The position numbers were made by a program, and so were the translations under genes. DNA of 64,000 bases from an uncultured Solirubrobacterales bacterium (lineage in GTDB: Bacteria; Actinomycetota; Thermoleophilia; Solirubrobacterales; 70-9), in contig CAWFPS010000001.1 of NCBI GenBank assembly GCA_963817905.1, positions 131,647 to 195,646 of the forward strand, given 5' to 3'. The notes under the pieces are model-generated. The model was not told the DNA's origin. It ran no database searches and was given only the letters and a program-made list of their open reading frames with translations. Shown in pieces: positions 5,697-45,761 of the stretch (positions are counted from its first letter, which is position 1; the number at the start of each line of letters is the position of its first letter).

Positions 5697-6279
5697 CCGA
5701 TACGGCAGGGAGCGCATCGCCAGAACGGCCGGCGGCATTGCCCAGGCGCCCCGAATCTGGAAGTACCGGCTGCTCTCCTCCTGTCGCCCCGCGGGCGGGT
5801 CGCCGCGCATCCTGCAGCCCGTCCTGTTCAGCGGCTCCGGTGAGATCAGGCTGGGGGAGGGGGTGCAGTTCGGCTGGCCGGACTCACCCCTCTTCTACAG
5901 CGGCTACTGCTACGTCGAGGCGAGCGGCGAAGCGGCCAGGATCGAGGTCGGCGACCGCACCGAGTTCAATAACAACCTGATGATCAAGTGCGAGGGGGCC
6001 GGTATCCGGATCGGCCGCGACGGGCTCTTCGGCGCCCATGTCGAGATCTTCGACAGCGACTTCCACGACCTTCATCCCGAACGGCGCAAGACCGGCGCCG
6101 CCCGGGTCGCGCCGGTGGAGATTGGCGACAACGTCTTCGTCGGCATGGCCGCCCGCATCCTCAAGGGGGTCACGATCGGCTCCGACGCCGTGATCGGCGC
6201 CGGCTCGGTGGTAACCGGCGCGATCCCGGCCGGCGTCGTCGCCGCGGGTAATCCGGCCAGGGTGGTGCGCGAGCTGTGA
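5680..6279 (+). CDS. hexapeptide-repeat (LbH) acetyltransferase
   Basis: The C-terminal part of ORF 5329..6279 reads IEVGDRTEFNNNLMIKCEGAGIRIGRDGLFGAHVEIFDSDFH...IGDNVFVGMAARILKGVTIGSDAVIGAGSVVTGAIPAGVVAAGNPARVV. The start (ATG 5680, a 17-nt overlap with the GT2) is approximate. Confidence 0.8.
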   Translation: MRAGSSRYGRERIARTAGGIAQAPRIWKYRLLSSCRPAGGSPRILQPVLFSGSGEIRLGEGVQFGWPDSPLFYSGYCYVEASGEAARIEVGDRTEFNNNLMIKCEGAGIRIGRDGLFGAHVEIFDSDFHDLHPERRKTGAARVAPVEIGDNVFVGMAARILKGVTIGSDAVIGAGSVVTGAIPAGVVAAGNPARVVREL

Positions 6280-7844: not shown

Positions 7845-8935
7845 GCAGGATGGGCGCGGCGAAGAGGCTGGCCGATCGGCTCTCGGCATGGCGGGCGCTG
7901 CGCAGGCGGCGGCCGCCCACGATCCGTACGACGACCGGCAGCGAGCTCCCGACGATCTACTACCTCTGCCCGGATTACTCGGTGCCGAGCGGCGGCATCC
8001 GGGCGATCTACCGCCACGTTGACATCCTCAACCGGGCCGGGCTGAGCGCCGCCGTCCTCCACCACCACGACGGCTTCGCATGTCGCTGGTTCGAGCACTC
8101 GACCCGCACCGTCGGCGTGCCGTCAGTGGCGCTTTCGAGCCGGGACATCCTGGTCGTGCCCGAGATCTACGGACCGTTCCTGGGCCGGCTGCCGCGCGAG
8201 CCGCGGCTGGTTGCCTTCAGCCAGAACGCCTACCTCACTTTCGAGCACATGCCGCCGAGAGTCGCGCCGCCGTACGAGCTCTTCGAGGCGGCGATGACCG
8301 TCTCGACCGATAGCGCCGAGTACCTGCGCTTCGCCTTTCCGAACCTCGACACCTCGGTCGTGCCGAACGGAATCGACCCCGCGGTCTTCTACCCGCCCAC
8401 CGCGCGACCAGGCAAGCGGTTGGCGTTGATGCCGCGCAAGCGGCCGAGCGACTCGGACCAAATCATCAGGCTGCTGGGCGAGCGCCTGCGGGGCTGGGAG
8501 ACGGTGAGGATCGAAGGTGCAGGCGAGGCCGAGACCGCGACGCTGCTGCGCTCGGCGCCGATCTTCCTCGCCCTCGGCAGGCAGGAGGGCTTCGGCCTTC
8601 CCGCTGCTGAGGCGATGGCATCGGGTTGCTACACGATCGGGTTCCCCGCCTTCGGTGGCCGCGAGATCTTCGATCCTTCCTGCTCGGTTGCGGTCGAGGA
8701 CGGCGACGTGCTCTCCGCGGCGCGGTCGCTGGCTGAGGCAATGGATCTCTACGAGCGCCAGCCCGAGCAGCTCCGCGCGATGGGCGCTCGAGCCAGCGAG
8801 CGCGTCCATGGTCAGTACTCGCCCGAATTCCAAGAAGAGGCTCTGCTCGCCTTCTACGCCAGGCTCGGCCTTGGCGCATCAGGCGAGGATCGGGACCGAG
8901 GAGTCCGCTTCCGCGGCGGGAGCTTCGTGGGTTGA
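7841..8935 (+). CDS. family 4 (GT-B) glycosyltransferase
   Basis: The motif EGFGLPAAEAMASGCYTIGFPAFGGREIF is the GT1/GT4 EX7E-region signature. There is a GTGA overlap with wzx. Confidence 0.85.
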   Translation: MSRMGAAKRLADRLSAWRALRRRRPPTIRTTTGSELPTIYYLCPDYSVPSGGIRAIYRHVDILNRAGLSAAVLHHHDGFACRWFEHSTRTVGVPSVALSSRDILVVPEIYGPFLGRLPREPRLVAFSQNAYLTFEHMPPRVAPPYELFEAAMTVSTDSAEYLRFAFPNLDTSVVPNGIDPAVFYPPTARPGKRLALMPRKRPSDSDQIIRLLGERLRGWETVRIEGAGEAETATLLRSAPIFLALGRQEGFGLPAAEAMASGCYTIGFPAFGGREIFDPSCSVAVEDGDVLSAARSLAEAMDLYERQPEQLRAMGARASERVHGQYSPEFQEEALLAFYARLGLGASGEDRDRGVRFRGGSFVG

Positions 8936-11074
8936 GCCGGAGCTGTCCGCGGCCCGTATGCGCTCAGGCATGTGCGGTCGGCCCTCTTCGTCGGCGACGA
9001 TCACGGCTAGGAAGCCGAGCATGATCATCAGGATGTAGGGGCCGTGCGGGAAGGACATGATGTCGAACAGGGCCGAAAGGACGAGGAACGCGCCCGTCGC
9101 CGCGGCGATGGCCAGGGCGGGGGGTGCTCGGCTCGGGCCACGGCGGCGGATTATCGGCACGGCCGCGGCGATCGACAACCAAAGCATCAGGAGGTAGGCG
9201 GCGAGGCCGACCAGGCCGGTCTCGACGACCCGCATCAGCAGGTCGTTGTCGAGCACGCGGTAGACGGTGTGGTCGTAGGAGCCGTAGCCGCGGCCGAAGG
9301 CGAGGTGGCTGAGCAGGTCGGGGCGGACGGCGTCGTAGTCGGAGACGCGGTCACTGACGGTCGAGACGCCGAGCCGGTTGGGGGCGAACTGGTCGACGAT
9401 CGAGCCCAGCGCGTTCGGGGCGAGGGCGGGGATGGCAAGGACAATGACGAGGCCGAGCGGGGCTAGGCGCAGCAGCTCGCGACGGCGGAAGTAGGCGAGC
9501 ACGAGGCAGACGGTCAGCGGCGCCAGCAGGGCGCTCTTACGGTAGGTGGCGACCATCGCCCCGAGCAGGATGCAGGTGGCGATCCCGCAGAGGATGCGCT
9601 CGCGGGTCCGGTTCGAGTGCATGACCCGGACGAGGGCGATCGGCAGGGCCATCGAGAGCATCCCGACCGCCTCGAGGCTGAGGTCGGCAGGACCGGCCAC
9701 CGCCCGCCTGCCGATCTCGTCGAAGCCGCTGGTGTCGAGGGAAGTGACCTGGAAGAAGCTGGGTAGCAGCCTGCCCGACCAGGTGTAGAAGAGGTTCGTG
9801 CCGAAGCGGTACTCCCAGAGGATGCCCAGCGCGCAGGCGACGGCGAGCGCCAGGGTGAGGGTCATGAAGGGGCGGATCTCGGCCGGTCGCACGATGCTGG
9901 CGACGAGCAGGAAGATCGAGAAGAAGGCGGCCAGCAGGGTCAGCTTTTTGATCGCCAGGCCGAACTCGAGCGCCCCGGCGAGCGAGGGGGCGTTGAGGAC
10001 CACGCTGAGAAAGGCGACGCCGACGAAGATCGCGACCGCCGCGTGGACCTTGGTGAAGCGCCAGCGCGGCGCGCCTGGCCCGCCGGCCGCCAGCGAGAGC
10101 AGCCAGGTGATCACGATTACCGGCAGGGCAACGCGGTCGATTTTGAGTTCGACTGGCAGCGAGGCCTGCAGGGCGATCGCGTTGATCGGCAGCAGCCAGA
10201 GCATGGCGATGAAGCCGGCCACCATCCAGGGCAGGACCCGCGTTGTGTGTGGCCAGCCGTCGGCCGCCGGCCGCTCGGCGGGCCGGGCCGGGGCAGGCGA
10301 TCTATTTGGCGTCTCGCCGCCAGCGGGACCGGCGCCGGCGCGAAGCCAACCGCGCCTGACCTGGGCGAGCCCGAAGAGCAGTCCGAAGCAGATGAGGAAG
10401 GTGACGAGGAAGGTGAGCAGCGCAACCAATGGGCGCGCCATCGGTTCGAGCGTTTCGCCGTGGGCGGTGCCGAGCTGGGTGAGCGTTACCGGGGCGCCGG
10501 CGACGCGAACGCGGTGGGCGAGACCCCGCAGGTAGAAATTCGCCGCCGACACGGCGGCGTTGGCGAGGTCCTCCGCGGCGCTGACCGAGGGCGCCTGGGC
10601 GTAGATGTCAAGCACCGGAAGGCTGGTGCGCGCCTGGATTTCCAGCTTGTATGGATCGCGGGCGACGCGGATCTCGCTGGCGCGGCGCTCGCTGTCGGGT
10701 TCGATGAAGGAGCGGGAAACGTTTTCGGTGACCTGCGTCTTCGCTGCGATCAGCCCGGGGTCGGCGCCGGTCAGGGCGGCGACCCGGTCGAGTACCGGGG
10801 GGCTGGTCATCAAGTTGGCGATCAGGTTGAGTCGCTTCGCCTGCGATTCGAAGTCGGTCAGCGTCGCCGGGCGGCGGGGCCCGGGCAGCCGGATCGCCGC
10901 GTGGGTGACGGCGCCTCCGTCGCGAAGGTGACGCAGCTCGATTCGGGGGGGCAGCAGGCTGAAGGTCGCCAGGCCGGCGACGGTGGCGATAGTCGCCACG
11001 ATCGTCGAGGCAGTGGCAAAGGCGATCAGCCTGCGCCGGCGGGCGACTGCTTGGTTTGGGCCTTGCGTCGGCAT
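8879..11074 (-). CDS. fusion protein: PCP/Wzz-like domain + O-antigen polymerase/ligase-like (Wzy_C-type) membrane domain
   Basis: This is a 731-aa product starting MPTQGPNQAV (ATG 11074). Residues about 1-270 are paralogous to the 2988-3749 product (PVLDIYAQAP, AQVRRGW). They are followed by about 10 TM segments and the loop motif AFGRGYGSYDHTVYRVLDNDLLMRVVETGLVGL, which is typical of the O-antigen ligase/polymerase family. The ORF-track entry 8879..13648 is only coding up to 11074. Confidence 0.75.
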   Translation of the reverse strand: MPTQGPNQAVARRRRLIAFATASTIVATIATVAGLATFSLLPPRIELRHLRDGGAVTHAAIRLPGPRRPATLTDFESQAKRLNLIANLMTSPPVLDRVAALTGADPGLIAAKTQVTENVSRSFIEPDSERRASEIRVARDPYKLEIQARTSLPVLDIYAQAPSVSAAEDLANAAVSAANFYLRGLAHRVRVAGAPVTLTQLGTAHGETLEPMARPLVALLTFLVTFLICFGLLFGLAQVRRGWLRAGAGPAGGETPNRSPAPARPAERPAADGWPHTTRVLPWMVAGFIAMLWLLPINAIALQASLPVELKIDRVALPVIVITWLLSLAAGGPGAPRWRFTKVHAAVAIFVGVAFLSVVLNAPSLAGALEFGLAIKKLTLLAAFFSIFLLVASIVRPAEIRPFMTLTLALAVACALGILWEYRFGTNLFYTWSGRLLPSFFQVTSLDTSGFDEIGRRAVAGPADLSLEAVGMLSMALPIALVRVMHSNRTRERILCGIATCILLGAMVATYRKSALLAPLTVCLVLAYFRRRELLRLAPLGLVIVLAIPALAPNALGSIVDQFAPNRLGVSTVSDRVSDYDAVRPDLLSHLAFGRGYGSYDHTVYRVLDNDLLMRVVETGLVGLAAYLLMLWLSIAAAVPIIRRRGPSRAPPALAIAAATGAFLVLSALFDIMSFPHGPYILMIMLGFLAVIVADEEGRPHMPERIRAADSSGSTHEAPAAEADSSVPILA

Positions 11075-12208: not shown

Positions 12209-13214
12209 ATGATCGAGGGTGGAAGGCACCTCGTCACCGGCGGCGCCGGCACGATCGGCTCGACCCTGGTCGACCAGCTGGTCGAGGCGGGCGCGGCCGA
12301 GGTGATCGTGCTCGACAACTTCGTCCGCGGCCGGCGCCAGAACCTCGAGTGGGCGCAGGCGAACGGCAACGTCACCGTGGTCGAGGGCGACGTCTGCGAC
12401 AAGCAGCTGGTCGGGGAGCTTAGCGGCGGCATCGACGTCGTCTTCCACCAGGCCGCGATCCGCATCACCCAGTGCGCGGAGGAGCCGCGGCTGGCGCTTG
12501 AGGTCTTGGTCGACGGCACCTTCAACGTGGTCGAGGCCGCCGCCAAAGCGGAGGTGCGCAGGCTGGTCGCCGCCTCCTCGGCATCGGTCTACGGGCTCGC
12601 CACCGAGTTCCCCACCGACGAGCTGCATCACCCATACGCCAACGACACGCTCTACGGCGCCGCCAAGACCTTCAACGAGGGGCTGCTGCGCAGCTACCAG
12701 GCGATGAGTGGCCTCGACTACGTCGCCCTGCGCTACTTCAACGTCTACGGGCCGCGGATGGACGTCCACGGCGTCTACACCGAGGTACTGGTGCGCTGGA
12801 TGGAGCGGATCGTCGCCGGCGAACCGCCACTGATCTTCGGCGACGGCACGCAGACGATGGACTTCGTCTGCGTTCCCGACATCGCCCGCGCCAACTTGCT
12901 CGCCGCCAATGCCGACGTGACCGACGCGGTCTTCAATGTCGCCAGCGGTGTCGAGACCAGCCTGCAGGAGCTGGCCGAGACACTGCTGCGGGTGATGGGC
13001 TCCGACCTGGCGATCGAGTACGGGCCCGAGCGGGCCGTGAACCGCGTGCCGCGCCGCCTCGCCGACACCGCAGCGGCGAAGCGGGAGCTCGGCTTCGAGG
13101 CCAGAGATCGGACTCGAGGAGGGCCTCGATATGCTGGTCGAGTGGTGGCGGTCGAGCAGCAGCGGGGCTGGCGCGCCGGGTCGGGCCGGGCTGGTCGCCT
13201 CGGAGGCTTCCTGA
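12209..13214 (+). CDS. NAD-dependent sugar epimerase/dehydratase (SDR), reading frame broken near 13103
   Basis: It carries the Rossmann motif VTGGAGTIGSTLV and the catalytic YGAAK. The conserved C-terminus EIGLEEGLDMLVEWW is only obtained by skipping base 13103. The stop then falls at 13212-13214 (TGATG junction). Confidence 0.8.
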
Positions 13215-14350
13215 TGGAGGTGCCCTTCGCCAAGCCGTGGTTCGGCGGCGGCGAGGCCGAGGCCGTGGCCGAGGTGATCGCCTCGGGCTGGCTGACCCAG
13301 GGCCCGCGGGTGGAGGAGTTCGAGCGCGCCTTCGCGGCCCGCGTCGGCGCGCCGGAGGCGGTCGCCACGACCAGCTGCACCACCGCCCTGCAGCTCTCGC
13401 TCTACGCCTCGGGGGTCGGACCGGGAGACGAGGTGATCGTCCCCTCGCTCTCCTTCATCGCCACCGCCAACGCGGTCTGGCAGTGCGGCGCGACGCCGGT
13501 CTTCGCCGACGTCGACCCTGCCACCTGCAACCTCGACCCCGCCGACGTCGAGCGGCGTTTGACGCCGCGCACGAAAGCGGTGATCCCCGTCCACCAGGTC
13601 GGCCTGCCGGCCGACATGGAGTGCTTTCTCGGTCTGGCCGAGCGCCACGGACTGACCCTGGTCGAGGACGCCGCCTGCGCGATCGGCGCGCTTTACCGAG
13701 GCCGGCCGATCGGCTCACTCGGGCCACTCGCCTGCTTCTCATTTCACCCGCGCAAGGTCATCACCTGCGGCGAGGGCGGGATGATCGCCGTCCACGATCC
13801 TCATCTCGCCGAGCGGCTGCGGCGGCTGCGCACGCACGCGATGGACCAGTCGGCGCTTGCCCGCCACAAGGCCCGCGACGTGGTCGTCGAGCACTACCCC
13901 GAGCGCGGCTGGAACGCGCGGATGACCGACCTCCAGGCCGCGGTCGGACTGCGCCAGCTCGACGTCCTCGACACGATCCTCGCCGAGCGTCGCCGTCTTG
14001 CCCATCGCTACTCGCAGGCCCTGGTGGAAATCCCCTGGATCGAGGTCCCCCGCGATCCTGCCTACGCCGAGCGGACCTGGCAGTCCTACCCGGTGCGGAT
14101 CGCCGCCGAGGCTCCGCTCGGGGCGGAAGAGCTGATGCGGGCGCTCTTGCGGCAGGGGGTTGCCACCCGCCGCGGGGTGATGGCGATCCACCGCGAGGGC
14201 GCCTACGCCGACACCGCTGTCAGCCTGCCGCACACCGAGGCGGCGGCGCGAGAGGTCGTGCTGCTGCCGCTCTTCCCTGGGCTAGAGGACGAGGCGCAGG
14301 ACTTCGTGATCGATTGCGTGGCCCAGGTCGGAATCGCCGAGGTGGCGTGA
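13214..14350 (+). CDS. DegT/DnrJ/EryC1/StrS-family PLP-dependent sugar aminotransferase
   Basis: Recognised motifs are MEVPFAKPWFGGGEAEAVAEVIASGWLTQGPRVEEFERAFA, VIVPSLSFIATANAV and FSFHPRKVITCGEGGMIAV (the PLP lysine region). Confidence 0.9.
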   Translation: MEVPFAKPWFGGGEAEAVAEVIASGWLTQGPRVEEFERAFAARVGAPEAVATTSCTTALQLSLYASGVGPGDEVIVPSLSFIATANAVWQCGATPVFADVDPATCNLDPADVERRLTPRTKAVIPVHQVGLPADMECFLGLAERHGLTLVEDAACAIGALYRGRPIGSLGPLACFSFHPRKVITCGEGGMIAVHDPHLAERLRRLRTHAMDQSALARHKARDVVVEHYPERGWNARMTDLQAAVGLRQLDVLDTILAERRRLAHRYSQALVEIPWIEVPRDPAYAERTWQSYPVRIAAEAPLGAEELMRALLRQGVATRRGVMAIHREGAYADTAVSLPHTEAAAREVVLLPLFPGLEDEAQDFVIDCVAQVGIAEVA

Positions 14351-15034
14351 GCGCGGAGCCGACAAGCCGGACCGCGTCGAGCACCGAGGGCTCGATTTGC
14401 CTTCAACGCCTCCGAGGCTGCGATTCGCCTTCTGGACATCGTCGGCGCGTCCGTCGCCCTGGTCCTTCTATCGCCGCTGCTGCTGGTCGTGGCGCTCGTG
14501 GTCAGGCTCGACTCGCCGGGCCGTGCGATCTTCAGGCAGCGCCGCCTGGGCAGGGACCTCGAGCCCTTCTCGGTCGCCAAGTTCCGCACGATGAGGCAGG
14601 GCGCTGACACCGAGGCCGGCGCCCACCGTTCCCACGTCGAGCAGATGATGGCCGACGAGGAGCGGCGCGGGACGCGGGCGATGTCGAAGCTGCAGGAGGA
14701 CGCTCGCGTCACCCGCGTCGGTAGCTTCCTGCGCCGAACCAGCATCGACGAGCTGCCGCAGCTGTGGAACGTGCTGCGCGGCGAGATGTCGCTGGTCGGC
14801 CCGCGACCGCCGATCCAGTACGAGGTCGACCGCTATCCGCCAGAGGCGTTTCGCCGCTTCGAGGTGCGCCCCGGAGTGACCGGCCTCTGGCAGGTGCGTG
14901 GCCGCAGCCTGCTCACCTTCAAGCAGATGATCGCGCTCGACACCGAGTACATCGAAACCCGCTCACCCGCGCTCAACCTGAAGATTCTTTTGCTCACCCT
15001 GCCGACCGTGATCCACGGCAAGGGCGCGGCGTGA
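14347..15034 (+). CDS. small phosphoglycosyl transferase (bacterial sugar transferase, PglC/WbaP-C-like); 5' end frame problem
   Basis: The sequence LLDIVGASVALVLLSPLLLVVALVVRLDSPGRAIFRQRRLG...DELPQLWNVLRGEMSLVGPRP is the family signature. The only canonical in-frame start is GTG 14489, which lies inside the membrane helix. GTG 14347 forms a GTGA overlap with the DegT stop but sits one frame off. Confidence 0.75.
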
Positions 15035-16288
15035 GCGGCTCACGCTGCGGCCGGGCTCTGCTGATCAGCGAGAACGCGCCGCTCCCCGGTGACCGTCGTG
15101 TCTGGAACGAGGCCCGGACGCTGGTCGATGTCGGCTGGGAGGTGGTCGCGGTCTGCGCTGCGGCAGCGGACCGTTCACAGCCCGCGAGCGAGACGATCGA
15201 GGGGATCGATGTCTACCGCTATCCCCTGCGACCGGCCGCCGGCGCACTCGGGTATGCACGGGAGTACGCCCAGGCGCTCTGGCGGATCCGGAAGCTGGTG
15301 CGGCGATTGCAGCGCGAGCGACCGTTCGACCTCGTTCACGCGGCCAACCCGCCCGACTTCCTCCTTCTCGCCGCTCGTTCGGCCCGCCGGCGCGGCGCTC
15401 GTTTTGTCTTCGACCATCACGACCTGACCCCGGAGCTCTTTCGCTCCCGCTTCGGTCGTGGCGGGATTCCGCACCGGGCGCTGCTGGCGATCGAGCGGCG
15501 GGCGATGCGCTCCGCGGATGTCGTGATCTCGACCAACGAGTCCTACCGGCAAATCGCGATCGAGCGTGGGGGGGTGGACCCCGAGGACGTCTTCGTCGTC
15601 CGCAACGGTCCCGACCTCGACCGCTTCCAGCCAGTACCGGCGGACCCGGACCTGCGCCGCGGCCGCCGTTACCTGCTCGCCTACCTGGGGGTGATGGGCC
15701 CGCAGGACGGCATCGACCATGCCCTGCGTTCGCTGTCGGCGCTGCGCGAGATGCGCGGGTGAGGACTGGCACGCCGTCTTCATCGGCGAGGGGGAGGTGC
15801 GCGGGGAGATGGAAATGCTGGCGGTGGAGCTGGGAATCGGGGGCTCGGTCGAGTTCGCCGGCTGGCGCGGCGACGATGACATCCGCCGCATCCTCTCGAG
15901 CGCGGACGTGGGCCTCGAGCCAGATCCGCCCAGCCCGCTCAACGACCGCTCGACGATGATCAAGGTCGCCGAGTACATGGCGATGGGCTGTCCCGTCGTC
16001 GCCTACGACCTGAAGGAGACCCGTGTCTCGGCCGGCGAGGCTGCCGCCTACGCGGAGGCGCCGACGCCCGCGGCGCTGGGGCGGTGCGTTCACCAGCTGC
16101 TCGAGGACCCGGAACGTCGGCGACAGATGGCACAGTTCGGCCGTGAACGGGTGGTCGATCTCTCCTGGCAACGGTCCGCGACGGCTCTCATCGCCGCCTA
16201 TGAGCGGGCGATGGGGCGGGAGACGCAGGCGGTTGGAAGCGGCGCCCGCGGCGGCTCGCCGGCGGCCGGGGTCGGGGTGAGCGGATGA
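15031..16288 (+). CDS. family 4 (GT-B) glycosyltransferase, frame broken at 15760
   Basis: The N-terminal half is ORF 14764..15762, read from GTG 15031 (GTGA overlap). The C-terminal half is ORF 15719..16288. Skipping t15760 joins ...SALREMRG to EDWHAVFIGEGEVRGEME..., giving a normal roughly 418-aa GT4. Confidence 0.8.
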
Positions 16289-17271: not shown

Positions 17272-17359
17272 GGCAACTCTCAACGTTTAGTAGAGGGTTA
17301 GTGCCGAGTTCTGGTATCGGCGGTAAAAAAACGTCGCCCCAGCGACCGTTGCTCCACTA

Positions 17360-20300
17360 GTGGCCAAGCTCTGCCAAGGCATAGTCGCGGTTGCCCTGCT
17401 CTTGCTGGGTGGCCAGGGGGTGTTCGCCGAGATCGCGACGGCCGGTCCCTGCGATGCGCCAGTCAACGAAATCGTCTGCGAGAACTCCAAGGTCGGCAAT
17501 CCCGCGACCGAATGGGACATCGAAGGGTCCGGCGACCCAAGCATCCAGGGCTTCACCACCGACATCAGCGTCAATCATGGCCAGGCGGTCCGCTTCAAGA
17601 TCAAGACCGACGCGACCGCCTACCACCTCGACATCTACCGGATGGGCTACTACGGTGGCGATGGCGCCCGCAAGGTGGCGTCCAGCATCCTGCCCTCGGC
17701 GAAACTTCCCCAGAGCCAGCCAGCCTGCAAAACCGAAGGGTCCACCGGTCTCTTCGACTGTGGCAACTGGTCTGAATCGGCCTCTTGGACGGTGCCGTCG
17801 ACAGCGGTCTCTGGCATCTACTTCGCCAAGCTGGTGCGGACCGACAAAAGCTCGGAAGGAAGCCACGATCATTTTCGTCGTGCGCAACGACGAAAGCCAC
17901 TCGAAGCCTGCTCTTCCAGACCGCCGACTCGACCTGGCAGGCATACAACCGCTACGGCGGCAACAGCCTCTACGCCGGCGGCCCGGGAACGAATCCCGAA
18001 CGCGCCTACAAGGTCAGCTACAACCGGCCACTGACGACCCGCGGGACGACCCCGGAAGACGCGCCCTTCTCGGCCGAATACCCGATGGTGCGCTGGCTGG
18101 AGCGAAACGGCTACGACGTCAGCTACTTCACCGGCGTAGACGATCGCCCGCCGCGGCGGCGAGATCCTCGCAGCACGAAGCTCTTCCTCTCGGTCGGCCA
18201 TGACGAGTACTGGTCGGCCGAGCAGCGCGAAAACGTCGAAGCGGCGCGCGAAGCGGGAGTCAATCTCGCCTTCTTCAGCGGCAACGAGATCTTCTGGAAG
18301 ACCCGCTGGGAAAACAGCATCGACGGGTCCAGCACCGGCTATCGCACGATCGTCTGTTACAAGGAGACCCACGCCGGCGCCAAGATCGACCCCGAAACCA
18401 AACGTCTGGACCGGAACCTGGCGCGACCCACGCTTCAGCCCGCCGGCTGACGGCGGCAAGCCCGAGAACTCGCTCAGCGGACAGGCCTTCATGGTCAACT
18501 CCGGCACCGGCTCGATCGAAGTGCCGGCGGCGGACGCGAAACTGCGCCTCTGGCGCAACACCGACGTCGCTTCGCTTAAAGCGGGCGAAACGGCAACTCT
18601 GGGCACCGAAACCCTCGGTTATGAGTGGGACGAAGACCTCGACAACGGCGCCCGGCCGCCGGGGTTGATCGATCTCTCCACGACCACGTTTGAAGTGCAG
18701 GATTATCTGATCGACTACGGCTCCAACTACCTGCCCGGGCCGGCAACCCACCACCTGACGCTCTACCGGGACGCCGAGCGGAGCGCTGGTCTTCGGCGCC
18801 GGCACGGTGCAGTGGTCATGGGGGCTGGACGAAGAACATGACCGCGGCGCCTATCCGCGGAATCCGGACTCCCGCATGCAGCAGGCGACGGTGAACCTGT
18901 TTGCCGATATGGGCGTGCAGCCGACGACTTTGCAGGAAGGCATCGTCGCGGCAACCCAGAGCACCGACACGACGCCGCCGGTGACGACGATCGCCAATCC
19001 GGCCGATGGCTCCGCGATCGAAAGCGGAGAGGAGATGACGATCAGCGGCACTGCCAGCGACGTCGGGGGGCAGGTGGCGGGGGTCGAAGTCTCGACCGAC
19101 GGTGGAGAATCCTGGCACCCGGCGAAGGGGAAGACCGCCTGGACCTACCCCTGGACACCGGGGGAAACGGGCAGCGCGACGATCAAGGCGCGCGCCGCCG
19201 ACGACAGCGCCAACCTGGAGAAACCGGGCGACCAGAACAGCATCGAAATCGTGCCCCGCTCGTGCCCCTGTTCGATCTGGGACAGCTCCTTCACCGGCGA
19301 ACCTGAAACGGACCCGAGCGAGATCGAAGTCGGGGTCAAGTTCCGCGCCGATACGCCCGGCTACATCACGGGACTGCGCTTCTACAAGACTCCGCGAAGG
19401 CACCGGAACCCATGTCGGCCACCTCTACACGGCAGGCGGGGCGCAGATGGCGGAAGCGACCTTCACGAAAGAAACCTCCTCCGGCTGGCAACAGGTGGAC
19501 CTCGCCAAACCGGTCGCGATCAACGCCAACACGACCTACGTTGCTTCCTACTACGCGCCCAATGGCCACTACGCGGCGCTGAGTAACTACTTCTCGGTGG
19601 TCGGGGCCGACAGCGCGCCGTTGCATGCGCTCGCCGACGGCGTTGACGGCCACAACGGCGTCTACCACTATGGAGTCGACGGTACCCTCTTCTCCGGCGC
19701 TGGACCGGAATCGTTCCAGGCGACCAACTACATGGTCGATGTTGTCTTCGAGTCCGAAGAACAGCCGCCGGTGATCTCCAATGTCCAGACGGTCGCTCAC
19801 AACGACGGCACGGCGATGGTCACCTGGGAGACTGATAAAGCCTCCGACTCCAAAGTGGATTACGGGACCAGTTCAAGTTCGCTCGGATCGAGTAAAAGCA
19901 GCTCGACCCAGGTCACCTCGCACAGCATTCAACTCAGCGGCCTCGCGGCAAACACGACCCACTACTTCCGCGTCACCTCGGCGGCGGGGGTCAACACTCG
20001 TACCGAACCCAGCCCGCTTCTCTCGCCGCTGAGCTTCATTACTCCACCCGCGGCCCCGACTCTGACGGGGACCGTTCCGGCGTCGCCGGCGAACAACAAC
20101 TCGCCAAAAGTGGTGGGCTCCGCGGCGAGCGGGACCACGGTGCGCCTCTACGGCACCAGTGGCTGCACCGGTTCACCGCTGGTGACCGCTAGTGCAGCCG
20201 AACTGGCAGCGGGCGTGTCCGCGACGGTCGCCGATGACACGAGCACCACCTTCCGAGCAACCGCCACCGGTTCGGCAAGCGAGGCCTCAGCTTGCTCGGC

Positions 20301-23300
20301 GGGGCTCACCTATGTTGAGGACTCGACAGCGCCGCAGACGCAGATCAGCTCGGGGCCGCCGACCCTAAGCACCTCGGCAAGTGCCGAACTCGAATTCTCC
20401 GGCACCGATTCTGGTGGCTCGGGCGTCGCCTCCTATGAGTGCCGGATCGACTCGACCGAACCCAGCGCCTGGGCATCGTGCACGTCGCCGAAGACCTACA
20501 ACTCACTCGCCGACGGCGCCCATAAATTCGAAGTCCGCTCGATCGACACGGCGGGCAACATCGACACCTCTCCGGCGGCCTCCAACTGGACCGTCGACAC
20601 AACCGCCCCGATCACGCAGATCGACTCCGGCCCGAGCGCGCTCAGCGCCTCAGGCACCGCCAATTTCGAATTCTCCGGCACCGACACTGGTGGCTCGGGC
20701 GTCGCCTCCTATGAGTGCCGGATCGACTCGACCGAACCCGGCGCCTGGGCATCCTGCACGTCGCCGAAGACCTACAACTCACTCGCCGACGGCGCCCATA
20801 AATTCGAAGTGCGGGCGATCGACACTGCCGGCAACGCCGACAGCAGCCCGGCGGCCTCCAACTGGACCGTCGACACCACGGCGCCTCAGGTGCAGATCAT
20901 TTCGGAGCCGGCCTCGATCTCGTCGTCAGCCGAAGCGACCTTCGCCTTCTCGGGTACAGACATCGGCGGCTCCGGCGTTGCCTCCTACCAGTGTCGACGT
21001 GACTCCGAAGCGCCCGGCGCCTGGGAGGTCTGCGGCTCTCCCGAGACCTATAACGCCCTCGCCGAGGGTCCCCACAAATTCGAAGTGCGGGCAGTCGACG
21101 GCGCCGGCAACGTCACCGCGCCACCTGCGACCTACGCCTGGACGATCGACACCGTTGCCCCTCAGACCCTGATCGACTCCAATCCGACGGCGGTAACGGC
21201 GTCCACCAGTGCCAACTTCAGCTTCTCGGGTTCGGACACCGGCGGCTCGGGCGTCGCCTCCTATGAGTGTCGGATCGACTCGACCGAACCGAGCGCCTGG
21301 GCATCGTGCACGTCGCCGAAGACCTACACCGGCCTCGCCGACGGCGCCCATAAATTCGAAGTGAGGGCGATCGACACTGCCGGCAACGCCGACAGCAGCC
21401 CGGCGACCTACGCCTGGACCGTCGACACCACCGTGCCCGAGACCCAGATCGACTCGACCCCGGTTTCCCTGAGCGCTTCGGCCAAAGCCGAATTCGGCTT
21501 TGGCGGCAATGACGGCTCGGGGTCCGGAGTCGCCTCGTTCCAGTGCCGCATCGACTCCACCGAAGCTGCCGACTGGAAAGCCTGCAGCTCGGTCAAGACC
21601 TACGAATCGCTCGCCGACGGCTCCCACAAATTCGAAGTCCGCTCGATCGATGTGGCCGGCAACACCGACCAGAGCCCGGCAACCTTCAGCTGGACGATCG
21701 ACACCGCCGCGCCCGACACCCAGATCGACTCCGGCCCCGCTGCGCTGGTCGCCTCGGCCAACGCCGAACTCAAATTCTCCGGCACCGACACTGGTGGCTC
21801 GGGCGTCGCCTCCTATGAGTGCCGGATCGACTCGACCGAACCCAGCGCCTGGACATCCTGCACGTCGCCGAAGACCTACAACTCACTCGCCGACGGCGCC
21901 CATAAATTCGAAGTCCGCTCGATCGACACGGCGGGCAACATCGACACCTCTCCGGCGGCCTCCAACTGGACCGTCGACACAACCGCCCCGATCACGCAGA
22001 TCGACTCCGGCCCGAGCGCGCTCAGCGCCTCAGGCACCGCCAATTTCGAATTCTCCGGCACCGACACTGGTGGCTCGGGCGTCGCCTCCTATGAGTGCCG
22101 GATCGACTCGACCGAACCCGGCGCCTGGACATCCTGCACGTCGCCGAAGACCTACAACTCACTCGCCGACGGCGCCCATAAATTCGAAGTGCGGGCGATC
22201 GACACTGCCGGCAATGCCGACCAGAGCCCGGCGACCTTCAGTTGGACCGTCGACACGACCGCCCCACAGACCCAGATCGACTCCAATCCGACGGCGGTAA
22301 CGGCGTCCACCAGTGCCAACTTCAGCTTCTCGGGTTCGGACACCGGCGGCTCGGGCGTCGCCTCCTATGAGTGCAGGGTCGACTCGACCGAACCCAGCGC
22401 CTGGACATCCTGCACGTCGCCGAAGACCTACAACTCCCTCGCCGACGGCGCCCATAAATTCGAAGTCCGCTCGATCGATGTGGCCGGCAATACCGACCAG
22501 GGCCCGGCGACCTTCAGCTGGACGATCGACACCACCGCGCCCGACGCCCAGATCGACTCCGGCCCCGCTGCACTGGTCGCCTCGGCCAACGCCGAACTCG
22601 AATTCTCCGGCACCGATTCTGGTGGCTCGGGCGTCGCCTCCTATGAGTGCCGGATCGACTCGACCGAACCCAGCGCCTGGGCATCGTGCACGTCGCCGAA
22701 GACCTACAACTCACTCGCCGACGGCGCCCATAAATTCGAAGTGAGGGCGATCGACACGGCGGGCAACATCGACACCTCTCCGGCGGCCTCCAACTGGACC
22801 GTCGACACAACCGCCCCGATCACGCAGATCGACTCCGGCCCGAGTGCGCTCAGCGCCTCAGGCACCGCCAAATTCGAATTCTCCGGCACCGACACTGGTG
22901 GCTCGGGCGTCGCCTCCTATGAGTGTCGGATCGACTCGACCGAACCGAGCGCCTGGGCATCGTGCACGTCGCCGAAGACCTACACCGGCCTCGCCGACGG
23001 CGCCCATATGTTCGAAGTGCGGGCGATCGACACTGCCGGCAATGCCGACAGCAGCTCGGCGGCCTCCAACTGGACTGTCGACACAACCGCGCCCGATACA
23101 CAGGTCGACGCTGGGCCGTCGGCTCTGAGCACCTCGGCCGACGCAGAATTCACCTTCTCCGGTGACGACGGTTCGGGCTCTGGTGTCGCCTCCTACCAGT
23201 GTCGCCGCGACTCCGAAGAAGCCAAAGATTGGGTTCCGTGCGGCCCGCCACAGACCTATCCCGCCCTCGCCGACGGCGCCCACAAATTCGAAGTCCGCGC

Positions 23301-26300
23301 CTCCGACCAGGCCGGCAACACCGATCCGAGTCCCGCCGTCTTCAACTGGACCATCGACGCGACCGCGCCGCAGACGCAGATCGATGCCCAGCCCGTGGTG
23401 CTCAGCGCGTCCCCAACCGCGCAGTTCACCTTCTCCGGTGACGACGGTTCGGGCTCTGGTGTCGCCTCCTATGAGTGCAGGGTCGACTCGACCGAGGCGG
23501 GCGGCTGGGCGCCGTGCGCCTCGCCCAAGACCTACACCTCACTCGCCGATGGCGCCCACAAATTCGAAGTGAGGGCAGTCGACGCCGCTGGCAACGTTGA
23601 CCAGAGCCCGGCGTCCTTCAGTTGGACAGTGGATGCCACCGCGCCCGATTCCCAAATCAGTTCCAACCCGCTGCTATTGAGCGCCTCCCCGAAAGCCGAA
23701 TTCAGCTTCACCGGCAGCGACGGATCCGGCTCGGGCGTGGCCTCCTACGAATGCCGCCTGGACTCGACTCAGTCCATCGACTGGAAAGCCTGCGCCTCGA
23801 CCAAGGAATACACGGGCCTCGTCGATGGCGCCCACAAATTCGAAGTGCGGGCAATCGATCAGTTCGGCAACGTTGACCAGAGTCCGGCGACCTTCAGCTG
23901 GACGATCGACACTACCGCCCCGCAGACCCAGATTGACTCCGGCCCGAGTGCGCTCAGCGCCTCAGGCACCCCCAAATTCGAATTCTCAGGCACCGATTCT
24001 GGTGGCTCGGGCGTCGCCTCCTATGAGTGCCGGATCGACTCGACCGAACCCAGCGCCTGGGCATCGTGCACGTCGCCGAAGACCTACAACTCACTCGCCG
24101 ACGGCGCCCATAAATTCGAAGTCCGCTCGATCGACACGGCGGGCAACACCGACACCTCTCCGGCGACCTCCAACTGGACCGTCGACACAACCGCGCCCGA
24201 GACCCAGATCGACTCGAACCCGGTTTCCCTGAGCGCTTCGGCCAAAGCCGAATTCGGCTTTGGCGGCAATGACGGCTCGGGGTCCGGAGTCGCCTCGTTC
24301 CAGTGCCGCATCGACTCGACCGAAGCTGCCGACTGGCAGCCGTGCGCCTCGGTCAAGACCTACGAATCGCTCGCCGACGGCTCCCACAAATTCGAAGTCC
24401 GCTCGATCGATGTGGCGGGCAACGCCGACCAGAGCCCGGCGACCTTCAGCTGGACGATCGACACCACCGTGCCCGACACCCAGATCGACTCCGGCCCCGC
24501 TGCACTGGTCGCCTCGGCCAGCGCCGAACTCAAATTCTCCGGCACCGATTCTGGTGGCTCGGGCGTCGCCTCCTATGAGTGCCGGATCGACTCCACCGAA
24601 GCTGCCGACTGGCAGTCGTGCACCTCGGCCAAGGAATACAACTCACTCGCCGACGGCGCCCATAAATTCGAAGTCCGCTCGATCGACACGGCGGGCAACA
24701 CCGACACCTCTCCGGCGACCTCCAACTGGACCGTCGACACAACCGCGCCCGAGACCCAGATCGACTCGAACCCGGTTTCCCTGAGCGCTTCGGCCAAAGC
24801 CGAATTCGGCTTTGGCGGCAATGACGGCTCGGGGTCCGGAGTCGCCTCGTTCCAGTGCCGCATCGACTCGACCGAAGCTGCCGACTGGCAGCCGTGCGCC
24901 TCGGTCAAGACCTACGAATCGCTCGCCGACGGCTCCCACAAATTCGAAGTCCGCTCGATCGATGTGGCGGGCAACACCGACCAGAGCCCGGCGACCTTCA
25001 GCTGGACGATCGACACCACCGTGCCCGACACCCAGATCGACTCCGGCCCCGCTGCACTGGTCGCCTCGGCCAGCGCCGAACTCAAATTCTCCGGCACCGA
25101 TTCTGGTGGCTCGGGCGTCGCCTCCTATGAGTGCCGGATCGACTCCACCGAAGTTGCCGACTGGCAGTCGTGCACCTCGGCCAAGGAATACAACTCACTC
25201 GCCGACGGCGCCCATAAATTCGAAGTGCGGGCGATCGACACTGCCGGCAACGCCGACACCTCTCCGGCGACCTCCAACTGGACCGTCGACACAACCGCGC
25301 CCGAGACCCAGATCGACTCGAACCCGGTTTCCCTGAGCGCTTCGGCCAAAGCCGAATTCGGCTTTGGCGGCAATGACGGCTCGGGGTCCGGAGTCGCCTC
25401 GTTCCAGTGCCGCATCGACTCGACCGAAGCTGCCGACTGGCAGCCGTGCGCCTCGGTCAAGACCTACGAATCGCTCGCCGACGGCTCCCACAAATTCGAA
25501 GTCCGCTCGATCGATGTGGCGGGCAACACCGACCAGAGCCCGGCGACCTTCAGCTGGACGATCGACACCACCGTGCCCGACACCCAGATCGACTCCGGCC
25601 CCGCTGCACTGGTCGCCTCGGCCAGCGCCGAACTCAAATTCTCCGGCACCGATTCTGGTGGCTCGGGCGTCGCCTCCTATGAGTGCCGGATCGACTCCAC
25701 CGAAGTTGCCGACTGGCAGTCGTGCACCTCGGCCAAGGAATACAACTCACTCGCCGACGGCGCCCATAAATTCGAAGTCCGCTCGATCGACACGGCGGGC
25801 AACACCGACACCTCTCCGGCGACCTCCAACTGGACCGTCGACACCACCGCCCCGATCACGCAGATCGACTCCGGCCCGAGCGCGCTCAGCGCCTCAGGCA
25901 CCGCCAAATTCGAATTCTCCGGCACCGATTCTGGTGGCTCGGGCGTCGCCTCCTATGAGTGCCGGATCGACTCGACCGAACCCAGCGCCTGGGCATCGTG
26001 CACGTCGCCGAAGACCTACAACTCACTCGCCGACGGCGCCCATAAATTCGAAGTGCGGGCGATCGACACTGCCGGCAACACCGACAGCAGCCCGGCGGCC
26101 TCCAACTGGACCGTCGACACAACCGCTCCCGAGACCCAGATCGACTCGAACCCGGTTTCCCTGAGCGCTTCGGCCAACGCCGAACTCGAATTCTCAGGCA
26201 CCGATTCTGGTGGCTCGGGCGTCGCCTCCTATGAGTGCCGGATCGACTCGACCGAACCCAGCGCCTGGGCATCGTGCACGTCGCCGAAGACCTACAACTC

Positions 26301-29300
26301 ACTCGCCGACGGCGCCCATAAATTCGAAGTCCGCTCGATCGACACGGCGGGCAACACCGACACCTCTCCGGCGACCTCCAACTGGACCGTCGACACCACC
26401 GCCCCGATCACGCAGATCGACTCCGGCCCGAGCGCGCTCAGCGCCTCAGGCACCGCCAAATTCGAATTCTCCGGCACCGATTCTGGTGGCTCGGGCGTCG
26501 CCTCCTATGAGTGCCGGATCGACTCGACCGAACCCAGCGCCTGGGCATCGTGCACGTCGCCGAAGACCTACAACTCCCTCGCCGACGGCGCCCATAAATT
26601 CGAAGTCCGCTCGATCGACACGGCGGGCAACACCGACACCTCTCCGGCGACCTCCAACTGGACCGTCGACACAACCGCGCCCGAGACCCAGATCGACTCG
26701 AACCCGGTTTCCCTGAGCGCTTCGGCCAAAGCCGAATTCGGCTTTGGCGGCAATGACGGCTCGGGGTCCGGAGTCGCCTCGTTCCAGTGCCGCATCGACT
26801 CGACCGAAGCTGCCGACTGGCAGCCGTGCGCCTCGGTCAAGACCTACGAATCGCTCGCCGACGGCGCCCATAAATTCGAAGTCCGCTCGATCGACACGGC
26901 GGGCAACATCGACACCTCTCCGGCGGCCTCCAACTGGACCGTCGACACAACCGCCCCGATCACGCAGATCGACTCCGGCCCGAGCGCGCTCAGCGCCTCA
27001 GGCACCGCCAATTTCGAATTCTCCGGCACCGACACTGGTGGCTCGGGCGTCGCCTCCTATGAGTGCCGGATCGACTCCACCGAAGCTGCCGACTGGCAGT
27101 CGTGCACCTCGGCCAAGGAATACAACTCCCTCGCCGACGGCGCCCATAAATTCGAAGTCCGCTCGATCGACACGGCGGGCAACACCGACACCTCTCCGGC
27201 GACCTCCAACTGGACCGTCGACACCACCGCCCCGATCACGCAGATCGACTCCGGCCCGAGCGCGCTCAGCGCCTCAGGCACCGCCAAATTCGAATTCTCC
27301 GGCACCGATTCTGGTGGCTCGGGCGTCGCCTCCTATGAGTGCCGGATCGACTCGACCGAACCCAGCGCCTGGGCATCGTGCACGTCGCCGAAGACCTACA
27401 ACTCCCTCGCCGACGGCGCCCATAAATTCGAAGTCCGCTCGATCGACACGGCGGGCAACACCGACACCTCTCCGGCGACCTCCAACTGGACCGTCGACAC
27501 AACCGCGCCCGAGACCCAGATCGACTCGAACCCGGTTTCCCTGAGCGCTTCGGCCAAAGCCGAATTCGGCTTTGGCGGCAATGACGGCTCGGGGTCCGGA
27601 GTCGCCTCGTTCCAGTGCCGCATCGACTCGACCGAAGCTGCCGACTGGCAGTCGTGCACCTCGGCCAAGGAATACAACTCCCTCGCCGACGGCGCCCATA
27701 AATTCGAAGTCCGCTCGATCGACACGGCGGGCAACACCGACACCTCTCCGGCGACCTCCAACTGGACCGTCGACACCACCGCCCCGATCACGCAGATCGA
27801 CTCCGGCCCGAGCGCGCTCAGCGCCTCAGGCACCGCCAAATTCGAATTCTCCGGCACCGATTCTGGTGGCTCGGGCGTCGCCTCCTATGAGTGCCGGATC
27901 GACTCCACCGAAGCTGCCGACTGGCAGTCGTGCACCTCGGCCAAGGAATACAACTCCCTCGCCGACGGCGCCCATAAATTCGAAGTCCGCTCGATCGACA
28001 CGGCGGGCAACACCGACACCTCTCCGGCGACCTCCAACTGGACCGTCGACACCACCGCCCCGATCACGCAGATCGACTCCGGCCCGAGCGCGCTCAGCGC
28101 CTCAGGCACCGCCAAATTCGAATTCTCCGGCACCGATTCTGGTGGCTCGGGCGTCGCCTCCTATGAGTGCCGGATCGACTCCACCGAAGCTGCCGACTGG
28201 CAGCCGTGCGCCTCGGTCAAGACCTACGAATCGCTCGCCGACGGCTCCCACAAATTCGAAGTCCGCTCGATCGATGTGGCGGGCAACACCGACCAGAGCC
28301 CGGCGACCTTCAGCTGGACGATCGACACCACCGTGCCCGACACCCAGATCGACTCCGGCCCCGCTGCACTGGTCGCCTCGGCCAGCGCCGAACTCAAATT
28401 CTCCGGCACCGATTCTGGTGGCTCGGGCGTCGCCTCCTATGAGTGCCGGATCGACTCCACCGAAGCTGCCGACTGGCAGCCGTGCGCCTCGGTCAAGACC
28501 TACGAATCGCTCGCCGACGGCTCCCACAAATTCGAAGTCCGCTCGATCGACACGGCGGGCAACACCGACACCTCTCCGGCGACCTCCAACTGGACCGTCG
28601 ACACCACCGTGCCCGACACCCAGATCGACTCGAACCCGGTTTCCCTGAGCGCTTCGGCCAAAGCCGAATTCGGCTTTGGCGGCAATGACGGCTCGGGGTC
28701 CGGAGTCGCCTCGTTCCAGTGCCGCATCGACTCGACCGAAGCTGCCGACTGGCAGCCGTGCGCCTCGGTCAAGACCTACGAATCGCTCGCCGACGGCTCC
28801 CACAAATTCGAAGTCCGCTCGATCGATGTGGCGGGCAACACCGACCAGAGCCCGGCGACCTTCAGCTGGACGATCGACACGGCCCCGCCTGCGGTAGCGA
28901 TCGATTCCCTGTCCAAGACTCTCATCGGCGCCGGCCAGTCGAGCGAAGTGCATTGGCACGCCACGGAGAACGGCGCCTTCGAGCTGCGCGTGGGGGGGAG
29001 CGACTGCACCAGCGGGACCGTCGTGGCCTCCGGCGCTTACGGCTCCGCACCGGGTCAACACATCTCCACCGTCGCCGCCACGGATCTCTCAGAAGGCGCG
29101 AACGCATTGCGGCTCTGTGTCACCGATGCGGCGGGGAGTCGCGGCGCCACTACTGCGAGCTTGACCCGAGACACCACCGCCCCCGAGACCCAGATCGACG
29201 CCCACCCGGCGGCGCTCTCGATCTCCTCCTCGGCCCAGTTCGCCTTCTCCGGCACCGACCTCGGTGGCTCGGGCGTCGCCTCCTATGAATGCCGCCGCGA

Positions 29301-45711: not shown

Positions 45712-45761
45712 CCGATCGCTCCCGTGTCTACCGACGACCGCCCGCTCCGTCAACGACGGGA

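Follow-up and report, generated by a model that had tools for sequence, protein, structure and literature searches.

The frame breaks in the head of the giant gene are very probably consensus artefacts rather than marks of a pseudogene or of recoding, because a near-identical strain has the same gene in one unbroken frame. Judged from the sequence, they are almost certainly not a real feature of the organism, in which a single intact gene of ~6,015 codons most likely occupies positions 17360-35415 of the window (the whole 64-kb stretch of DNA that was analysed). We infer that the extra bases causing the breaks are missing from the organism's DNA and from the source reads.

Frame steps and domain layout of the giant gene

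Frame steps were mapped by three-frame translation and by tblastn with the closest homologue among the matches listed (P0021), itself a frameshift-truncated product. The conserved head is read in frames 2, 0, 1, 2, 0, 1 (coordinate mod 3) in the deposited sequence, as the original prediction had stated, with switches near 17868, 17907, 18394, 18775, and 19394. Its count of five breaks holds for the net frame switches but not for the insertions, since nucleotide alignment to the conspecific contig placed eight single extra bases in the head, at 17868, 17907, 18145, 18171, 18183, 18394, 18771, and 19394 of the plus strand, three of which (18145, 18171, and 18183) sum to +3.

The first of these, an A at 17868 (equally G17867), shifts the frame from 2 to 0 and reads cacgAtc against cacg-tc in the conspecific; the second, a C at 17907, shifts it from 0 to 1 (aagCctg against aag-ctg). 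Each of the next three is a C, and together they keep the net frame and garble 13 codons, converting DARRGGEILEHEAF to DRPPRRRDPRSTKL. A G at 18394 moves the frame from 1 to 2 (ccccGaaa against cccc-aaa), and an A at 18771 moves it from 2 to 0. The fourth break, previously placed at c18779, belongs at this last position; the true reading there is LYRAPSGALVF, and the "DAE" read earlier is therefore out-of-frame text. The eighth extra base, a G at 19394, shifts the frame from 0 to 1 within the DUF4082 domain, where the true reading is FYKTPEGTGTH.

Once the eight extra bases are removed, the corrected gene (17360-35415, plus strand) is an 18,048-nt ORF of 6,015 aa plus a stop, with 0 internal stops. 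It starts at the GTG at 17360, and the conspecific gene begins at the equivalent GTG. The sequence that follows resembles a signal peptide, VAKLCQGIVAVALLLLGGQGVFA|E, in a judgement made by eye only. The original prediction had left the stalk with neither start nor signal peptide should the breaks be real; the head has this GTG of its own and this signal-peptide-like N-terminus.

Seven of the eight extra bases fall within the DMFA2_C domain (PF20254) of the head, at 17627-18840 on the plus strand, and interrupt it. When the reconstructed head was compared with Pfam profiles, its residues 90-491 matched positions 2-372 of the 374 in PF20254 (E = 1.5e-103) in a single stretch spanning four junctions. 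A Big_7 Ig domain follows downstream (E = 8.4e-11), and a DUF4082 match (E = 5.7e-42) bridges the fifth junction. Because the DMFA2_C and DUF4082 matches run across the junctions, the head pieces are one gene; none of the junctions interrupts the alignment of homologues, and the case of unrelated ORFs, which was to have overturned the one-gene reading, does not apply.

The last frame stays open to 35415, and the 16,017 nt of open frame from 19399 onwards agree with what had been reported. They hold a stalk of tandem Big_13 Ig-like repeats of 276 nt (92 aa) each at 20368-34132 of the plus strand, its frame unbroken, with ~31 copies at 20368-28880 and ~15 more-diverged copies at 30006-34132. The product would comprise a signal peptide, a DMFA2_C-like head, Big_7, DUF4082, and then ~46 Ig-like repeats, and is predicted to be secreted.

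The same head architecture occurs in large secreted bacterial proteins that carry DMFA2_C, Big_7, and DUF4082 with Ig-like repeats (annotated as "DUF4082 domain-containing protein"), and thousands of proteins, from Solirubrobacterales, Actinoplanes, Acidobacteriota, and others, share 55-83% identity with the head. The protein, with its ~46 Big_13-type repeats, is at ~6,015 aa much longer than most relatives among the matches listed, which have roughly 1,000-1,400 aa. The nearest solved structure by sequence, N-acetyl-(R)-beta-phenylalanine acylase, is a weak partial match only.

Extra bases upstream and their distribution

The original prediction placed the breaks within the opening 2 kb of the giant gene, but they extend from 13.1 to 19.4 kb and affect three more genes, all on the plus strand. 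In the NAD-dependent epimerase gene (12209-13213), an extra A at 13103, near the 3' end, joins the gene to that of a DegT aminotransferase and creates a false 713-aa ORF at 12209-14350; its removal restores 334 of 334 residues. The Bac_transf sugar-transferase gene (~14347-15034) carries an extra G at 14394, around codon 16, whose removal restores 228 of 228 residues. An extra C at 15756 lies mid-gene in the GT4 glycosyltransferase gene (15031 to ~16282) and is absent from the conspecific. With these three bases deleted, full-length proteins are regained from all three genes. A further extra G at 10945 falls in an intergenic G-run (G7 in the window against G6 in the conspecific) and could be either a true polymorphism or an error in the homopolymer.

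All 11 coding insertions fall in 6.3 kb of ~56 kb of comparable sequence (the span would begin at 10.9 kb with the intergenic site included), and this clustering is far beyond chance. The 16-kb stalk has 0 breaks, against ~84 predicted at the head rate. The coding changes comprise 11 insertions and 0 deletions (P ~5e-4 at even odds), and 10 of the 11 lie outside homopolymers; among all 12 sites, runs are found only at 10945 (G7) and, weakly, at 17907 (CC).

The same 6.3 kb holds 57 substitutions relative to the conspecific. Divergence is only modestly higher in the cluster (0.9% against 0.33% in 1-10.9 kb), and the equally divergent stretches at 36-37.5 kb and 46-48 kb have 0 coding insertions; both points count against the explanation favoured below. 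Collapse of a duplicated region was considered as a cause and rejected, as no second copy of 10.5-20.3 kb is present within the window.

Relatives, alleles, and the origin of the extra bases

The conspecific reference, contig_67049 of ENA ERZ25039549, is ~99.3% identical to the window outside repeats. Its giant gene is a single intact ORF of 5,555 aa, its epimerase, Bac_transf, and GT4 genes are also intact, and all 12 extra bases (11 coding and 10945) are without counterpart in it. The 29 other head homologues examined, from representative genomes, are all single-frame. The head family is read in one uninterrupted frame at these 29 loci, in the conspecific, and in the corrected sequence, but not in the deposited window; the proposed comparison with the orthologous locus shows an unbroken gene. 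Homologue searches found no third conspecific assembly and no short-read head fragments among the matches listed.

The artefact alternative raised in the original prediction is backed by this intact strain, by the insertion-only pattern, by an excess of synonymous changes, and by the same defect in related ENA contigs. Across the first 977 codons, the repaired head differs from the conspecific in 22, with 15 synonymous and 7 non-synonymous changes (P ~1e-4 against neutrality), so that the relaxed selection expected of a pseudogene is not seen. In the conspecific contig itself, a non-homopolymer one-base insertion cuts phosphomannomutase to 277 aa from 460. That insertion was considered as an allele of a related genome from the same sample, and this was rejected as that genome's allele does not match. 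Homologues are shattered in L001 and L087, which come from neighbouring ENA analysis accessions, and many head fragments of 120-245 aa occur on long ENA contigs.

Nanopore consensus sequences typically err through indels in homopolymers, many of them deletions. The 10 non-homopolymer insertions among the 11 coding sites are unlike these and count against an artefact of this kind. Microflora Danica's long-read catalogue was built from Nanopore data alone, with Flye assembly and one Medaka round (PMC12313526). By inference from its relatives, the window most likely comes from a soil metagenome assembly made in the same way. Residual indels in Nanopore-only metagenome assemblies fragment gene calls, a problem measured by the IDEEL test, and bins under ~40-fold coverage retain indel errors (Sereika et al. 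2022, PMC9262707). The window resembles such cases: conserved genes are cut by single-base indels into neighbouring ORFs that differ in frame, a separate conspecific assembly lacks these indels, and sister contigs from neighbouring ENA accessions are similarly damaged. It differs in that the indels of classic cases sit in homopolymers and are distributed with coverage, whereas here the insertions are confined to 6.3 kb, occur without deletions, and show a tendency to double a polymorphic position by adding its alternative allele.

This tendency was assessed against 20 related genes, the species itself having the minority base at the matching sites. For 5 of the 8 head sites and 6 of the 11 coding sites, the inserted base is the one that most of the family has at the adjacent position, against a null expectation of 0.10-0.22, with P from 2e-4 to 2e-2 for nucleotide-level thresholds picked after data inspection. 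Beside 17868, 11 of the 20 related heads have A and 8 have G; beside 17907, 18 have C where the window has G; beside 18145 and 18183, 16 have C where it has T; and beside 18394, 11 have G where it has A. In GT4, all six relatives have C beside 15756 and the window has G. In the corresponding amino-acid-level test of "both alleles", 7 of 8 cases were plausible (null 0.63), which falls short of significance (P = 0.14). At the six matching coding sites, the nucleotide pattern looks like both alleles of one SNP entered into the consensus.

The favoured explanation is that the consensus step put 11 spurious bases into coding sequence over ~13.1-19.4 kb. The detailed cause would most likely be a read pile-up of two closely related strains, in which both alleles of some SNPs were emitted side by side (GATC from GTC/ATC, for example, or from GAT/GAC), with a +1 frame shift from every doublet.

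The artefact could also have arisen without SNP doublets, from random read errors that persisted in the draft at a local coverage trough or in an unpolished stretch, a cause that is possible though rather unlikely. The 6-8.5 kb span would correspond to about one long read or polishing chunk, indels persist in low-coverage long-read bins (PMC9262707), and L087 has the generalised shattering typical of low depth. The doublet idea, moreover, does not fit the phosphomannomutase insertion of the conspecific. Errors of the raw-read type should, however, bring deletions, homopolymer errors, and mismatches, where only insertions are seen; the accompanying substitutions look biological, being mostly synonymous, and extra bases that match family alleles are unexpected from random error.

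Genuine and very recent decay, in which the epimerase, Bac_transf, and GT4 genes and the head of the giant gene gained 11 one-base insertions and left the stalk an untranslated relic, is improbable. The extra bases are present in the public record, as the protein collection contains the 224-aa fragment in identical form, and all struck genes are neighbouring and functionally linked. Bacteria commonly lose surface structures as an adaptive route, which also speaks for decay. As in recent frameshift pseudogenes, a conserved gene is broken by frameshifts absent from close relatives. The very recent pseudogene that had been offered as an alternative is nevertheless poorly supported, as eight independent insertions in one gene, at <1% divergence, stand against only 22 changed codons, mostly synonymous, and the 16 kb downstream is untouched. 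Mutation in bacteria is known to favour deletions and slippage at repeats, the reverse of what the window shows, and natural decay would bring nonsense changes as well; here there are 0 deletions, 0 in-frame stops, and no larger indels. Two further points against decay are that the extra bases mimic relatives' alleles and that the sister assembly has a defect of this type in a housekeeping gene.

Still less probable is a localised, insertion-only mutational process that struck 11 times, at <1% divergence, in this 6-kb block of surface-glycan genes and adhesin head and silenced four genes at once. One possibility would be error-prone repair synthesis during recombination, with a diverged allele as the template; it could also account for the copied relatives' alleles.

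A systematic error linked to methylation motifs was also rejected: GATC lies near 5 of 12 sites at a background of 8.7 per kb (P = 0.065), and CGA, found beside 11 of the 12, has a raw P of 0.0025 that loses significance once 64 tests are allowed for. Programmed recoding, in which the ribosome or RNA polymerase would shift +1 at each site and the protein would still be made, fits the net steps, which are all +1, but can be set aside as exceedingly improbable, given that the 12 sites share no common motif (neither GATC nor CGA), that the shift sites have no stop codon or slippery run and are missing from the 99.3% identical strain and from 29 homologues, that three of them only garble 13 conserved codons, and that similar insertions occur in three unrelated neighbouring genes.

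Meaning for annotation

Extra bases that were real would point to an unusual mutational process at this locus, which the evidence speaks against. If reads confirm the consensus artefact, clustered allele-doublet insertions outside homopolymers would be a recognisable signature of mixed-strain pile-ups, one that homopolymer-aimed polishing and frameshift-correction tools would miss. On the reading that we favour, the deposited contig mis-annotates one 6,015-aa protein, predicted to be secreted, as six or more fragments, and presents three glycan-synthesis genes as broken or falsely fused. Gene catalogues, pseudogene counts, and completeness measures derived from such assemblies would carry the error onward.

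Extra bases in the head of the giant gene

The giant gene (17360-35415, forward strand) starts at a GTG, and its conserved 5' part, the head, precedes a stalk of Ig-like repeats. Translation of 17300-19800 in the three forward frames showed that the conserved text is carried by frame 2 as far as ...KSSEGSH, and next by frame 0, which holds IIFVVRNDESHS. It goes on in frame 1 at LLFQTADSTWQAYN, in frame 2 at NVWTGTWRDPRF, in frame 0 at GALVFGAGTVQWSWGLD, and once more in frame 1 from GTGTHVGHLY, in a final ORF that extends to 35415. When the pieces were joined by hand into an 809-aa head, DMFA2_C (PF20254) was matched in Pfam in one stretch over profile positions 2-372 of 374 (E = 1.5e-103), and Big_7 and DUF4082 were matched as well. 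The closest database homologue of the head (P0021), used as tblastn query, returned one segment per frame in the order originally predicted. The ordered segments and the single-stretch match confirm that the head pieces are homologous across the junctions and form one gene. The five frame steps are therefore genuinely present in the sequence as deposited. As an exact look-up found the 224-aa first fragment among public proteins, on an NCBI/ENA contig of 309,845 bp, the breaks belong to the archive record.

Comparison with the orthologous locus of a related genome, suggested together with the original prediction, was made on a 207,469-bp ENA contig (ERZ25039549 contig_67049), where cluster mates of the neighbouring proteins (at least 90% identity) were found. 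From this contig, 74 kb were taken in four overlapping pieces (L084, L082, L083, and L085) covering the whole window. Only ~0.3-1% of positions differ outside the stalk repeats, so the two sequences represent strains of one species. In the conspecific contig, the giant gene is a single intact called ORF of 5,555 aa from the equivalent GTG, and all genes upstream of it are intact.

Every indel was listed by nucleotide alignment of the window to the conspecific. Eight single extra bases occurred in the head, at 17868 (A), 17907 (C), 18145 (C), 18171 (C), 18183 (C), 18394 (G), 18771 (A), and 19394 (G) of the forward strand. The five predicted breaks therefore stand as net frame steps but not as a count of extra bases. 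The bases at 18145, 18171, and 18183 were absent from the prediction; they sum to +3 and keep the net frame, turning DARRGGEILEHEAF into DRPPRRRDPRSTKL. The fourth break, formerly placed at 18779, is moved by the alignment to 18771, where the true text is LYRAPSGALVF. Likewise, the breaks had been localised to the start of the giant gene, which is indeed hit, but the cluster reaches three upstream genes, with extra bases in the epimerase (13103, A), Bac_transf (14394), and GT4 glycosyltransferase (15756) genes. One more extra base lies in an intergenic G-run (10945). Removal of the eight head bases yielded an 18,048-nt ORF of 6,015 aa with no internal stop, and removal of the three upstream bases yielded full-length matches to the conspecific proteins. 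Because the epimerase gene and that of the DegT-type aminotransferase share one base in the conspecific, the extra A at 13103 joins them falsely into a 713-aa ORF (12209-14350). Compared with the conspecific, the GT4 gene also has an in-frame 6-nt tandem duplication (CGGGGT; 16267-16272) close to its 3' end.

Consensus errors or real mutations

Several independent observations, on selection, rate, spectrum, stalk, and family, point to errors. Over its first 977 codons, the corrected gene departs from its conspecific counterpart in 22, of which 15 are synonymous and 7 non-synonymous. As random coding changes are non-synonymous in ~70% of cases, the excess of synonymous ones is a signature of purifying selection (P ~1e-4) and not of a decaying gene. 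Between 13103 and 19394 (6.3 kb), 11 insertions stand alongside only 57 substitutions. A total of eight independent hits on a single gene at <1% divergence is far above any natural indel-to-substitution ratio that we know of. The coding indels comprised 11 insertions and 0 deletions (P ~5e-4 at even odds), with 10 of the 11 outside homopolymers, while natural bacterial indels are deletion-biased and repeat-associated. Neither nonsense changes nor longer indels occurred. The 16-kb stalk carries 0 breaks versus ~84 predicted at the rate of the head, which is not the pattern of a dead gene in uniform neutral decay, and the head is single-frame in all 29 other homologues examined in representative genomes.

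Together with the sister assemblies described below, these observations favour consensus errors, the artefact half of the original interpretation, and we hold it very probable that no biological feature underlies the frame breaks. Genuine recent pseudogenisation of the affected genes is improbable, as all 11 hits in 6.3 kb would have to come from an insertion-only process of no known kind. Programmed +1 frameshifting can in practice be excluded, given that the sites share no common motif and have neither a stop nor a slippery run, three of them only garble conserved codons, three unrelated neighbour genes are also affected, and a 99.3% identical strain is without any of the shifts.

Sister assemblies, possible mechanism, and confinement

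Apart from one insertion in the conspecific contig, the other unpaired one-base differences in the 64 kb are intergenic (45800, 45807, 46083, 50602, and around 52.0-52.4 and 54.7 kb). That non-homopolymer insertion (cttgCacg; L085 5291, window 54315) cuts the phosphomannomutase (L085 4327-5521; window 53351-54733, minus strand) to 277 aa, while it has 460 aa in the window and, among the 14 further proteins that its cluster lists, in 12. P0021 (ERZ25039495 contig_47841) has an out-of-frame ending after ...DYGTS from an extra T. Its locus (L001, 3700-12400), which belongs to a different species, carries further breaks in the genes for GT2, the epimerase, DegT (twice), and GT4; taken with the one at the head-stalk junction, its breaks are a mixture of +1 and -1. 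A short-query search of the protein collection returned dozens of 120-245-aa head fragments on long ENA contigs. On the 369-kb contig ERZ25039489 contig_61807 (L087), a homologous DMFA2_C/DUF4082 gene is split into at least eight small ORFs (5154-10214); genes beside it are also fragmented.

The ENA analysis accessions of the window's relatives are neighbouring, their contig names are Flye-style, and among named genomes, 'MFD' Solirubrobacterales MAGs come nearest, suggesting that the window itself comes from the Microflora Danica project. The long-read catalogue of that project was built from Nanopore data alone, assembled with Flye (meta, nano-hq), and polished in a single Medaka round, and was checked by its authors for Nanopore-associated errors (PMC12313526). 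Earlier, the same group reported that bins below ~40-fold coverage keep indels that fragment gene calls (PMC9262707).

At several sites, both alleles of one SNP may have been put into the consensus. The window reads cac-G-A-tc at a codon that is GTC in the conspecific and encodes Ile in the closest other species, and ga-T-C where GAT and GAC are synonymous. A test at the amino-acid level was not significant (P = 0.14). At the nucleotide level, codon alignments of 20 related heads were searched for extra bases equal to the relatives' common base at either adjacent position, with the window base differing there. At a 50% threshold, this was found at five of eight head sites (17868, 17907, 18145, 18183, and 18394) and, with the upstream genes included, at 6 of 11 coding sites; at 15756, the relatives have C in 6/6. 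Against a null expectation of 0.10-0.13, P was ~2e-4 to 1.5e-3, and ~0.004-0.02 at a 30% threshold. As the thresholds were picked after the data were seen, the match to relatives' alleles gives moderate support to a two-strain consensus mixture. A true insertion mutation would have no reason to copy a relative's allele, while a consensus from two close strains would have one. The family-majority (ancestral) base would be expected as the second allele in about half of real SNPs, and the observed share is close to this.

Divergence from the conspecific was 0.9% in the affected stretch versus 0.33% upstream, while the similarly divergent 36-37.5 and 46-48 kb contain 0 coding insertions. No second copy of the affected region was seen within the window. 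In L001, the breaks occupy the homologous interval, which begins at GT2 and ends at the head-stalk junction; 3.3 kb upstream and 7.9 kb downstream are clean. The protein search apparently listed no proteins longer than ~1.75x the query, which would have shown truncated relatives alone, and the position of the L001 breaks is partly ascertainment, though its upstream breaks are not explained in this way. A local coverage trough, a strain-variable block of glycan genes and adhesin head, or an unpolished chunk are possible reasons for the confinement.

The corrected product and its surroundings

The corrected product begins with a signal-peptide-like N-terminus (judged by eye), followed by the DMFA2_C-like head, Big_7, DUF4082, a purple-acid-phosphatase-N-like Ig domain, ~31 Big_13 repeats of 276 nt (92 aa), ~15 more diverged repeats, and a basic C-terminal tail in which no LPXTG motif was seen. 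It is rich in Ser, Ala, and Thr. Its 6,015 aa exceed the 5,555 aa of the ~99.3% identical strain by exactly 460 aa, or 1,380 nt, which equals five 276-nt units, so repeat copy number differs between close strains unless the array was collapsed or expanded in assembly. A third, more distant syntenic genome from the same sample as the conspecific (L086; ERZ25039549 contig_13864, 292,691 bp; 75-91% nucleotide identity) has an apparently intact giant gene of 5,271 aa at the same position.

Directly upstream lies a polysaccharide-synthesis cluster with a flippase, a Wzy-like polymerase, glycosyltransferases, an epimerase, an aminotransferase, and an initiating transferase. Downstream, a second large Ig-repeat protein with glyoxal-oxidase-like domains (41341-45753, minus strand) has an ORF of 1,470 aa versus 1,456 aa in the conspecific. 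Two Fic-domain genes occur at 46398-47450 and 49073-50137, and the 369 nt at 45968-46336 match, at ~98% identity, a portion of the second of these genes as it stands in the conspecific. GATC occurs 555 times in the whole window (8.7 per kb), ~3x the composition expectation, which is estimated at ~3 per kb.

Homologues of the head number in the thousands across soil bacteria, and the nearest solved structure by sequence is N-acetyl-beta-phenylalanine acylase, with a weak and partial match. The giant gene belongs to a known but uncharacterised family and is ordinary within it; its frame breaks are of wider value only as an error signature that can be recognised in metagenome assemblies from Nanopore data.
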